Below are positions 34,428 to 37,242 of a DNA stretch of 64,000 nucleotides, piece after piece; position 1 is the stretch's first letter; each line of letters begins with the position of its first letter. The notes under the pieces are model-generated. The model had not been told where the DNA came from. It saw only the letters and a list, made by a program, of their open reading frames with translations, and made no database searches. The DNA lies in contig CM000430.1 of the NCBI GenBank assembly GCA_000165345.1, positions 704,001 to 768,000 on the forward strand, read 5' to 3'. A program made the position numbers and the translations under genes.

Positions 34428-37242
34428 TTAGCCAAGACAAGTTTCAATCTTATTTCTAATGGTCTTAAGGTTATCTTTAGGGGAGAATTTGATTTCAGTA
34501 AAATTCTGAATGGGATGAATAATAAGTTTATTATTGAAAAGTAATAAAATAAAAAAAATGAATAATCTTTTTTATTCAACTTACTTGAAAAGGAAAAGAA
34601 TGTTTATTGGTATTATTGGAGAAAATTAATGAGTCTAGATCCCAGTATCCAAATTCAAAGAGTAAGGTTTTAAAATATTGAGCAATTCCTTCTTCAGATA
34701 AGCAATTATGTGCAAAGTTAGAGGTGATTTTTGAGATATTACTTGAGATTTGGGGATTCTCCAAGATTAAATTAACCTATAAAATTTAGGAAGTTAATGA
34801 AAGAGATGATATTTGTGGACCAATATTGAAATATAATAATAATAATAATAATAATAATAATAATTATTATTATTATTATTATATTATTTAGTAATAAAAA
34901 TGGAGTTTATGGGATTATTTGTGAGATTAATATGTTCCATATATCCTCTAATATATCCTAAAAGTTTCTCCATTTATTGAAATGAAGAGTAGAATTAATT
35001 GGAAAAAGAAGATTTCTTTTTGTTTCTTCAACTCCCAGCTCAATTCTCATGTTCATTTCTCTATATTATTATTTTTATTAATTCCAATAATATTGAGAAA
35101 ATGGTCCAACCAAAGATCAGGATTTGGCTAACTTACATTTAATAAGATATCACTGATATTATTAAATTTGAAAAAGAGACGGTTTTTCTTGAATAAAAGA
35201 TCATAGAATTGGTGTGAGTAATAAGATCTAATATTTTGGAAGATCATTGTTCCTAAAAAAAATTTAAGTTTAAAAGTAAATATTATGGATGAAATAAAAA
35301 TTATATTTAACTTACCAGTAAGCATAAGCATTCTAAGTCTATTAGACCAAGGACCGACCCCAGATAGGTCTAAAGAGAATTTACTAGATACTAATCTGTT
35401 GATCCAGTCTATAAAAGATATCGATTCCTTTCTACAAATGAATTTTGAATCGCATAATGTAAGTTTTTCAAGTAAATTGGCTCTATTTTCACAAGAGATT
35501 TTGTTTGAATCAGATATAAATACGTGATTTGAAATATTTCCACTATGAAAATTATTATGGTATATTTCATTATATATATTACAAGAAAGATCAAGTCTGG
35601 ATGTATCTGTATATCTTCCAATAAAGAATAGAGTATTATTTTTAAGATTCCATAAATCTTTATTATTATTTGGATATTCATTCGAAATAAAAGATCTTGC
35701 AATAAGTTCATTATTATCAAGATGATTAACATATGGAATAGAAGCAAAATCCCATGAGTTTGAGTTTGATGATATTGAAAGTATAAGACCACTAGAATTT
35801 GGTGAGTTTTTAGGATTGAATTGACAAATACAATGAAGATGATTAAATAGTTTAAATATATCTCTTTTTTTTAATTTATCAAAAATGGATGTAAATATGG
35901 AATTATTATTTTGAAAAAAACAAGGAATATAACACTTTATTGTTCCATAACACATTATTTCTGGAATATGATAACGAGATAATATTGAAATAATTTGTTT
36001 AACAAAATTGTTGATTATTTCACATATTGTATATGTTGTGAGATGATTATTGATTAAACTTGAAAATATGGTACCATTATTTTGATGATAATTTTGGTCA
36101 TCATTTTGAATTATAGATTGATTATTATTATTTTGGTTTTGATAACGATAATGATTAAAAGAAAGAAAGTAACTTTTGGATACAGAAGAAGAATAAGAGG
36201 TAAAGTTTGAGGATTGATTGGTTACATTAACTGTAGAATCTTCACAAATGTTCATATTACTATTGTTATTACTATTATCATTATTATTATAAGAGATTAA
36301 GGTTGAAAGAGAAGTACATTTACTATTAAATTGTTGCTGAGGTTTTAAAAATACATGGTGAATTTCTGTTGTGTTTGAGAGTAGGAATTGCATTTGTTTG
36401 GAGAATTTAGAATTTAAGATACATTTTTCAATATGAAGTGTATCATTTTTGTAAATATGAAATGGCATAGATTTCCAGATTATAGGGCAATCATCATAAT
36501 GTATGAGCAAATCTAAATATCTTATATGATTATTATACTTTAAAGAGTTATTTTCGTTATTGTTTTCATTTTCTTCTATGCTATTTTTTTGAATTGCTTT
36601 AAATATATATTTAATAGTATGATTAATATCTCTGATCTTTAATTGTTTTAATTTACTTACTTTAGGTATACGTTGATCTGGAATACATGAAATAATTGGT
36701 TCAAATTCAAGTATTTTACGATTTATTGAATCAAAGATATATTTAAAACGTAGTTTAATCATTGTAATATCATCATTTATAGTAGTATATGATAAGTACT
36801 TAATCATTTCTTCAATTTGAAATGAAGGGCCCAATATTAATGATTTAGAATGATTAGATGAATTAATAATGGAGCTAGTTTTGTATTTTGAAATTAAAGA
36901 TTTTACACTTTTTTTCCAGTAATTTTGACATAATTTTGGAAAGTTATTTTTTTGATGATCTTGAAATGATTTAATGATTTCAGGTAAATTATTAAATATT
37001 TGAAAAATATTTTCATCATTTTTTTCAAAAATCTGTTCAGAATCAAAAGAAATATTAGGATTACTATCTTCGTTTTGAATTAATTTAGCATCTTCTTTTT
37101 CAAGTAGAATTTGCTGATTTATTTGTTGAAAAAGTTTGTTTTTATGATCATTATCATTTTTAAATTCTGTAATAATGTAACAAATGATACATACCAATAC
37201 TAAAGAATGGATAAATAGAGCAACAAGTCTTATTCGAATCAT
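34428..37242 (-). CDS. GT90-family glycosyltransferase (POGLUT1 / Rumi / CAP10-like). It is a type II membrane protein in three exons: 35137..37242, 34585..34776 and 34428..34505. The introns are 34777..35136 and 34506..34584.
   Basis: The N-terminus is a signal anchor (LVALFIHSLVLVCIICYII). WNLKNNTLFFIGRYTDTSRLDL aligns with POGLUT1 [51 protein letters not shown] aligns with [26 protein letters not shown]. The track ORF stops inside aat|gtaagt. The 62-aa minus ORF at 34576..34764 is flanked by ttttatag| and |gtaagt. Joined in frame it gives ...NISDILLN|VNLILENPQISSNISKITSNFAHNCL..EGIAQYFKTLLFEFGYWDL, which aligns position for position with POGLUT1 [51 protein letters not shown]. A third micro-exon after cccattcag| adds NFTEIKFSPKDNLKTIRNKIETCLG*, comparable to POGLUT1 NVTRRKGYDQIIPK. 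The POGLUT1 sequence is recalled from memory. Exon 3 is the least certain. Confidence 0.55.
34834..34886. repeat. (ATA)n / (ATT)n microsatellite inside the proposed first intron of the GT90 gene.
   Basis: ataataataataataataataataataattattattattattattat. Confidence 0.85.

Follow-up and report, generated by a model that had tools for sequence, protein, structure and literature searches.

Cryptosporidium cgd2_3500 as a four-exon gene predicted to encode a divergent, membrane-anchored GT90 glycosyltransferase

Glycosyltransferase family 90 (GT90, the CAP10/POGLUT family of CAZy) includes transferases that do not act on proteins: the fungal enzymes Cap10 and Cxt1, which sit in the secretory pathway as type II membrane proteins, help to build a protective outer layer and act on capsule polysaccharide and glycolipid. 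The protein O-glucosyltransferase POGLUT1 uses D133 as its catalytic base and binds the donor diphosphate through R218 and R279 (PMC5543122); the counterparts in POGLUT2 are D238 and R310/R316/R376 (PMC13084666). In Cryptosporidium, a 2022 genomic reconstruction of glycosylation lists as O-glycan enzymes only a fucosyltransferase (Fuc-T), an N-acetylglucosaminyltransferase (GlcNAc-T), five N-acetylgalactosaminyltransferases (GalNAc-Ts), and a beta3Glc-T, from which three O-glycoforms are predicted. The gene considered here, cgd2_3500, is not mentioned in that reconstruction, and our searches for literature on cgd2_3500, or on Cryptosporidium together with GT90, POGLUT, or CAP10, found no Cryptosporidium paper. 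We analyzed cgd2_3500 within a 64,000-nucleotide (nt) window of Cryptosporidium parvum IOWA chromosome 2 (GCA_000165345.1, CM000430.1, positions 704,001 to 768,000); all coordinates below are window positions, and the gene lies on the minus strand. We put the probability that cgd2_3500 is a four-exon gene for a membrane-anchored GT90 transferase of the secretory pathway at roughly 0.75. The gene model, with three short, position-conserved introns and a 770-amino-acid (aa) product, is, taken jointly with the predicted GT90 fold, very probable.

The locus carries a 704-aa open reading frame (ORF; 37242..35128, minus strand) identical to XP_626537.1/EAK88669.1 of Iowa II and to QOY42878.1 of IOWA-ATCC (CPATCC_000563). 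Judged by its surroundings, the gene is cgd2_3500, since its neighbor is cgd2_3490 and both the order of rows in a published expression table and the neighbors in orthologous loci agree. In that table, the row after cgd2_3500 ("Uncharacterized protein") is cgd2_3510 ("Cus1p"); the other flank in orthologous loci is a DUF382/PSP gene, whose counterpart in the window is the ORF at 38043..39851 (plus strand). A preliminary description, made from the letters of this DNA, had observed that the 704-aa ORF runs into a splice donor, and it does: the 3' end reads ...AAT/GTAAGT TAG (slashes mark splice junctions), with GTAAGT read as Val-Ser and the stop immediately after. The two 3' introns which that description proposed (35136..34777 and 34584..34506), its 64-codon exon bounded by ttttatag/ and /gtaagt (34776..34585), and its 26-codon terminal exon (25 codons plus TAA, 34505..34428) all proved sound, the introns being position conserved in eight species. 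Its count of three exons did not hold, because it had missed a third intron of 63 nt at 35315..35253.

Exon 1 (35316..37242) comprises codons 1 to 642 and the first base of G643. It is supported by the ORF and its translation, hydropathy, residues invariant in eight orthologs, and mapping to POGLUT1 and POGLUT2, and it encodes the signal anchor (residues ~1 to 28), the C..YW and HYDDCP motifs, D251 (36492..36490), an insert of ~200 aa, R543 (35616..35614), R549 (35598..35596), and R635 (35340..35338). The missed intron, intron A (35253..35315; 63 nt, phase 1, G/GTAAGT...TTTTTTTAG/GA), has a counterpart at the same position in all eight species. In C. parvum it preserves the reading frame and has no stop codon, and so stays hidden inside the 704-aa ORF; read through, it yields KLNIIFISSIIFTFKLKFFLG. 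Exon 2 (35137..35252; 116 nt, ...TMIFQNIRSYYSHQFYDLLFKKNRLFFKFNNISDILLN) was recovered by tblastn in 8/8 species and aligns with POGLUT1 residues ~286 to 325. Intron B (34777..35136; 360 nt, phase 0, AAT/GTAAGT...TTTTATAG/GTT) contains a microsatellite, and its orthologs all run from GTAAGT to AG. Exon 3 (34585..34776; 192 nt, VNLILENPQISSNISKITSNFAHNCLSEEGIAQYFKTLLFEF...) carries an invariant cysteine, C706, and encodes the C-terminal helices of the nucleotide-sugar-binding domain, as supported by conservation, by an ungapped alignment to POGLUT1 and POGLUT2, and by confident modeling (predicted local distance difference test [pLDDT], 86 to 94). Intron C (34506..34584; 79 nt, phase 0, CAA/GTAAGT...CCATTCAG/AAT) has orthologs that all carry GTAAGT donors. 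Exon 4 (34428..34505; NFTEIKFSPKDNLKTIRNKIETCLG, with TAA at 34430..34428) is preceded by ...ccattcag/, ends close to the terminal cysteine C768, and is conserved in 8/8 Cryptosporidium species. At 192 and 78 nt, exons 3 and 4 are small rather than micro-exons in the usual sense, the term first applied to them.

We compared the C. parvum locus with its orthologs in C. meleagridis, chipmunk genotype I, C. ubiquitum, C. canis, C. felis, C. bovis, and C. ryanae, giving eight species with C. parvum. The four coding blocks occur in the same order in every species (tblastn), and each spacer between them opens with GTAAGT, closes with AG, and interrupts the same codon phase throughout. Spacer lengths vary widely (intron A, 63/74/63/120/92/103/67/75 nt; intron B, 360/306/245/233/66/446/51/69 nt; intron C, 79/78/86/67/50/83/49/54 nt), and in the species other than C. 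parvum, intron A either has a length not divisible by three or contains stop codons. In the comparison with C. meleagridis, the exons show 91 to 94% identity and zero indels, with substitutions biased to the third codon position (5/1/12 at positions 1/2/3 in exon 2). Identity is 80% for intron A and 73% for intron B, and indels of 1 to 4 nt or more occur in each of the three introns. Conserved position, GTAAGT..AG ends, variable length, and frame-breaking indels across eight species together argue that introns A, B, and C are genuine. Exon 4 is independently supported, since C768 is kept in ≥90% of the wider family described below, including Vitrella and Bathycoccus.

Intron B had been singled out as long for this genome and as bearing an (ATA)n repeat. 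The repeat is present, and 360 nt is ~3.5 times the mean intron size of 104 bp reported for C. proliferans. Only some members of the genus have a long intron B; in C. canis, C. bovis, and C. ryanae it measures 51 to 69 nt. Tandem Repeats Finder places (ATA)10.7 at 34833-34864, followed by (ATT)9 at 34863-34888. On the transcribed strand, (TAA)n is thus followed directly by (TTA)n (34833..34888), which amounts to a long perfect hairpin, and the complete intron has a folding energy of -81.5 kcal/mol (z = -4.8 versus shuffles). The microsatellite is mostly missing from the C. meleagridis intron and is therefore probably incidental. A search of intron B for a hosted small nucleolar or other noncoding RNA gave no Rfam match.

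The four-exon model itself is not new. Its 770-aa product is identical to WKS76648.1 (C. parvum IIa-IOWA 43IA8), the same structure is found in KAL5370145.1 (strain HLJ, annotation transferred from 43IA8) and KAL3129607.1 (C. hominis), and the GT90 assignment is implicit in precomputed Pfam hits. Elsewhere the deposited models disagree. Apart from one newer C. hominis record, the listed C. hominis and C. tyzzeri records carry the unspliced ORF; the models of C. meleagridis and of a Logan assembly end inside intron A; the chipmunk genotype model runs into intron B; those of C. bovis, C. ryanae, and C. xiaoi run into intron C; and those of C. canis and C. felis are mis-spliced. Complete models exist only for C. 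ubiquitum, 43IA8, HLJ, and one C. hominis record, and curated ortholog models for the eight species were built in this analysis. Such inconsistency fits the presence of real introns at these predicted positions, and the misannotated 3' ends hide the only recognizable domain of the protein. The GenBank product name on spliced models, [quoted passage not shown] probably derives from translated intron A: with that intron retained, a second hydrophobic segment appears at residues ~638 to 665, while the spliced protein keeps only the N-terminal segment, residues 1 to 28.

Introns A and B must both be removed to assemble a recognizable GT90 domain, because only products lacking both match the Pfam profile PF05686 (Glyco_transf_90/CAP10). 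The 770-aa product scores 29.1 bits (gathering score, 24; E = 6e-7) and a 747-aa product with A and B removed scores 29.2 bits, exon 4 lying outside the match. No PF05686 match was obtained for the 704-aa ORF, for a 683-aa product with A alone removed, or for the 791-aa product with B and C removed and A kept; the 704- and 791-aa sequences matched no Pfam profile of any kind. The 791-aa sequence is the product put forward in the preliminary description, which proposed a PF05686 search on it and took the lack of a match as grounds for rejection; a correct GT90 idea would thus have been discarded on the strength of an incorrect product, one that keeps intron A as 21 hydrophobic residues after the R635 motif. 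The underlying claim, that splicing restores the C-terminal part of the GT90 fold, is borne out by the PF05686 match and by the structural modeling below.

We then extended the family by searching 1.84 billion cluster representatives exhaustively with HMMER, using as the query an alignment of the ortholog sequences as deposited. All 21 matches at E ≤ 1e-3 were Cryptosporidium (the gastric species C. andersoni, C. muris, and C. serpentis among them), Vitrella, Bathycoccus prasinos, EukProt transcriptome, or metagenomic proteins. At least seven were paralogs from Vitrella brassicaformis, named in UniProt "Glycosyl transferase CAP10 domain-containing protein," and among the non-Cryptosporidium matches scanned against Pfam, 8/9 carry PF05686 at 34 to 94 bits, the best spanning profile positions 3 to 328 of 396. 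No named coccidian, haemosporidian, or piroplasm protein was found at E ≤ 1e-3 among the 1.84 billion representatives, and word-index homolog searches with mixed or non-Cryptosporidium alignments added nothing new. The family is single copy in Cryptosporidium, with at least seven paralogs in the free-living chromerid Vitrella; one related transcript pair (GHVR01042429/30) comes from EukProt. The predicted cgd2_3500 product is a divergent GT90 branch shared with the chromerid alga Vitrella, not an ortholog of POGLUT1-3.

Profile comparison connects this branch to the solved enzymes. Probabilities from hhalign against human POGLUT1 were 98.7% for the family profile with the bridging sequences (E = 3.7e-16, residues 198 to 377 of POGLUT1) and 98.8% for the non-Cryptosporidium subprofile (E = 5.9e-17, residues 121 to 372). 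The POGLUT1 sequence used reproduces the residues F104, R107, D133, A172, R218, Q240, F278, and R279 quoted in PMC5543122. An AlphaFold2 model built with a 27-sequence alignment reached a pLDDT of 71 and a predicted template modeling score of 0.74, with low confidence confined to two loops, the N-terminal stalk, and the lineage-specific insert. When this model was searched against the PDB with Foldseek, its top four matches were Rumi, POGLUT1 (two entries), and POGLUT2 (E = 1-4e-7), followed by generic GT-B entries (E = 2e-3). The modeled fold is GT-B with two Rossmann domains, and solved GT90 structures match it better than do other GT-B families. The model thus shows the predicted luminal part adopting the GT-B fold of CAZy GT90.

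Alignment places candidate catalytic residues at the expected positions. D251, in the HYDDCP motif, corresponds to POGLUT1 D133; R543, in FFIGR, to POGLUT2 R310; R549 to POGLUT1 R218 and POGLUT2 R316; and R635, in GPWSNRLR, to POGLUT1 R279 and POGLUT2 R376. All four are invariant in 8/8 Cryptosporidium species. Intron A falls directly after the R635 strand (LMLTG/TMIF), so that a retained intron would place 21 hydrophobic residues inside the core of the nucleotide-binding domain. The last helices of this domain come from exon 3, and across the exon 2/3 junction the alignment to POGLUT1 and POGLUT2 is ungapped, as the preliminary description had noted for POGLUT1, with a motif that reads YF..LL.E instead of the YW..LL.E given there.

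Hydropathy identifies a single N-terminal hydrophobic segment (residues 1 to 28) typical of a type II signal anchor, and we infer that the product is a type II membrane protein. Its C terminus reads ...RNKIETCLG; no KDEL-like C terminus is present in the 770-aa product, and no filamin match was returned by the Pfam scan. Between the catalytic-Asp and SxS motifs lies a Cryptosporidium-specific insert of ~200 aa (residues ~290 to 470, window ~36370..35830) that the Vitrella proteins lack. The insert has an N-rich low-complexity part (pLDDT < 50) and, after it, a conserved C-x-G-x-(I/V)-x-C-(Y/H)-(I/L)-P-C segment, for which a PDB search returned a scorpion toxin at a nonsignificant E of 5.4. The IOWA and HLJ strains differ within it by an RY indel (FNHYRYQNQ versus FNHYQNQ).

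Several observations weigh against the four-exon GT90 reading. The PF05686 match of the 770-aa product is marginal, spanning only profile positions 212 to 319 of 396; only 4/8 curated orthologs match at E ≤ 1, and the score of C. ubiquitum (18.2 bits), unlike that of C. parvum, does not reach the gathering score. Used by itself, the Cryptosporidium family finds little: a phmmer search of the protein against PDB sequences returned only POGLUT2 (E = 0.048, not significant alone), an hmmsearch with the eight-species profile returned POGLUT2 at a nonsignificant E of 0.32, and AlphaFold2 with the shallow alignment of eight Cryptosporidium sequences gave an unusable model (pLDDT, 36.5). The Cryptosporidium-only profile matched POGLUT1 with 5% probability in hhalign, so the Vitrella and algal bridge sequences are needed for the assignment. 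The correspondence of D251 to D133 is likewise transitive through the Vitrella/algal profile and is not a residue-level structural superposition. N634 occupies the position of the glucose-contacting F278 of POGLUT1, and donor specificity is therefore not transferable by homology. The unspliced 704-aa model is carried by Iowa II, by IOWA-ATCC, and by a third C. parvum record (WRK31143.1). Finally, expression of cgd2_3500 in HCT-8 culture is very low (0 to 9 normalized units; PMC11078545 S3).

On the GT90 reading, splicing of introns A and B would assemble the nucleotide-sugar-binding Rossmann domain, and exon 4 would add the conserved, Cys-containing C-terminal tail. The protein would then be an inverting, metal-independent glycosyltransferase of the secretory pathway, in which D251 would deprotonate the acceptor hydroxyl and R543, R549, and R635 would hold the diphosphate of the uridine diphosphate (UDP) sugar. 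The donor would most plausibly be UDP-glucose (UDP-Glc) or UDP-galactose (UDP-Gal), since de novo synthesis in the parasite yields no other UDP-sugars. We regard an active UDP-hexose transferase of the secretory pathway as reasonably likely. An alternative to this is a catalytically dead, GT90-like pseudoenzyme serving as a scaffold or lectin, which the very divergent sequence, large insert, and weak Pfam scores might suggest; the catalytic Asp and all three diphosphate-binding Arg are invariant in 8/8 species, and we consider this very improbable.

Expression tables list cgd2_3500 as specific to females (macrogamonts), which may point to an acceptor connected with the oocyst wall. The gene is classed "Female specific" with a log2 fold change of 4.52 in female versus asexual stages (Tandel dataset) and is significantly lowered by two differentiation inhibitors (PMC11078545 S3); it is absent from a 2012 reverse transcription-PCR transcriptome supplement. 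[quoted passage not shown] The acceptor may accordingly be sought, speculatively, in a secreted cysteine-rich glycoprotein or a glycan destined for the oocyst wall and made in macrogamonts; such an oocyst-wall acceptor is a possibility that we rate as rather doubtful. Equally tentative is a broader proposal, in which Cryptosporidium would make a fourth type of O-glycan, a GT90-installed O-hexose (probably beta-O-glucose) on cysteine-rich oocyst-wall or fertilization proteins in macrogamonts, and the enzyme would be a relic of the chromerid era.

An alternative concerning the acceptor is that the enzyme, like fungal GT90 members, acts on something other than a protein or an epidermal growth factor (EGF) repeat, for example, a glycan or glycolipid of the oocyst-wall glycocalyx. 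The family has such members, the N-terminal acceptor domain has diverged strongly and includes the 200-aa lineage-specific insert, and female-specific expression would suit a role in that glycocalyx. On the other hand, the structurally closest solved enzymes act on proteins, and neither "xylose" nor "UDP-Xyl" occurs in the published reconstruction (0 occurrences), UDP-xylose being the donor of Cxt1. We think an acceptor of this nonprotein or non-EGF kind unlikely.

The preliminary description had instead favored a protein O-glucosyltransferase-type enzyme with a 791-aa product, and the alternative built on it is a three-exon gene for a POGLUT1/Rumi-type enzyme that would place O-glucose on C-X-S-X-(P/A)-C of EGF repeats. 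The fold and catalytic residues do match POGLUT1 and POGLUT2, and UDP-Glc is available to the parasite. However, the 791-aa product retains intron A, which is an intron in eight species, and fails PF05686. Identity to POGLUT1/2 is only 14 to 16%, and its nearest relatives belong to the chromerid and algal CAP10 proteins rather than to the metazoan POGLUTs. The protein ends in ...IETCLG, not KDEL or KTEL, and has no detected filamin domain; the EGF-contacting residues F104, R107, A172, and Q240 are not demonstrably conserved (the N-domain was not directly aligned); and the literature found reports no O-glucosylated EGF in Cryptosporidium. Action on EGF repeats is thus unsupported, and this alternative is quite improbable.

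A further alternative holds that the unspliced 704-aa ORF is the real or main product, with the downstream exons untranslated, or that intron retention silences the enzyme except in female stages. In its favor, the 704-aa ORF stands in three older reference annotations, intron A of C. parvum can be read through in frame with no stop, and expression in culture is very low. However, the downstream blocks are conserved as protein, with third-position bias, in eight species and out to Vitrella, including C706 and C768; intron A of other species is not a multiple of three or contains stops; and the truncated product would lack the last Rossmann helices and has no GT90 match. We regard it as highly improbable.

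Downstream of cgd2_3500, on the plus strand, lies the ApiAP2 gene cgd2_3490 (30529..34356, 1275 aa, TGA at 34354-34356), identified by a PF00847 match (43.9 bits against a gathering score of 33.3, residues 341 to 391) and by a published cgd2_3490 forward primer that matches window positions 30675-30696. The convergent ApiAP2 neighbor had been recognized correctly from the outset; the 72-bp spacing given for it is a coordinate difference, and 71 nt (34357..34427) separate the two stop codons by ORF coordinates. This tail-to-tail arrangement with the cgd2_3490 ortholog is kept across the genus, with 68 to 258 nt between stops in species with an annotated downstream gene. Although short against the mean C. 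parvum intergenic distance of 504 bp (PMC7840661), a spacing of 71 nt is unremarkable where transcripts reportedly overlap and merge, and overlap of the 3' untranslated regions of cgd2_3500 and cgd2_3490 is likely.

The product of cgd2_3490 (ApiAP2-1) is female specific and a proposed driver of macrogamont differentiation (PMC13657310), so that both convergent neighbors have been reported as female-stage genes. Its binding motif, TGCATGYR, was sought in the divergent promoter between cgd2_3500 and cgd2_3510 (37243-38042) and was not found there. In the window as a whole, this motif, published for the AP2 factors cgd2_3490 and cgd1_3520, occurs 25 times against 2.9 expected (0/100 shuffles reach 25), mostly in tight clusters such as 44263-44352 and 56560-56775. 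The divergent upstream neighbor, the 602-aa ORF at 38043..39851 (plus strand), occupies the position of the DUF382/PSP gene (Cus1/SF3b145-type U2 small nuclear ribonucleoprotein), which by position alone is consistent with cgd2_3510.

As a conserved, female-specific gene whose product looks catalytically intact, cgd2_3500 is an unlisted candidate for O-glycosylation and offers a concrete gene with a possible role in oocyst-wall construction and transmission. If the proposal of a fourth type of O-glycan is true, the enzyme, undetected in any other named apicomplexan in the HMMER search, would be a parasite-specific target of the transmission stage. The interest is moderate and lies mainly in Cryptosporidium glycobiology and genome curation.

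Compared with human POGLUT1 and Drosophila Rumi (GT90; PDB 5L0R and 5F84), the cgd2_3500 protein is twice as long and ~16% identical. Those enzymes have a cleaved signal and a KTEL endoplasmic reticulum retrieval motif, whereas the Cryptosporidium protein has an N-terminal signal anchor and, unlike them, a ~200-aa low-complexity, Cys-containing insert between its Asp and SxS motifs; the sugar-contacting F278 is replaced by N634, and EGF-contact residues are not demonstrably conserved. Human POGLUT2/KDELC1 (PDB 9W47; identity, ~14 to 16%) differs in having a filamin domain and KDEL, both lacking here. With the fungal GT90 enzymes (Cryptococcus Cap10/Cxt1 beta-1,2-xylosyltransferase), the relationship is known at the level of the shared Pfam and CAZy family, and their donor, UDP-xylose, is not in the published Cryptosporidium pathway reconstruction. 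The closest relatives outside Cryptosporidium are the Vitrella CAP10-domain proteins (e.g., CEL98308.1 and CEM23325.1; at least seven paralogs; E = 1e-45 to 1e-34), which lack the ~200-aa insert, are GC-rich and multicopy, and, being uncharacterized, bring no functional information. With the cgd2_3500 protein they have in common the motifs C..YW, (D/E)DCP..W, LLSxS..WD.P.(I/V)PY, FF(I/V)GR..D..RL..C, ICR, and PG.GPWS.RLR.LLL.G and the terminal Cys.

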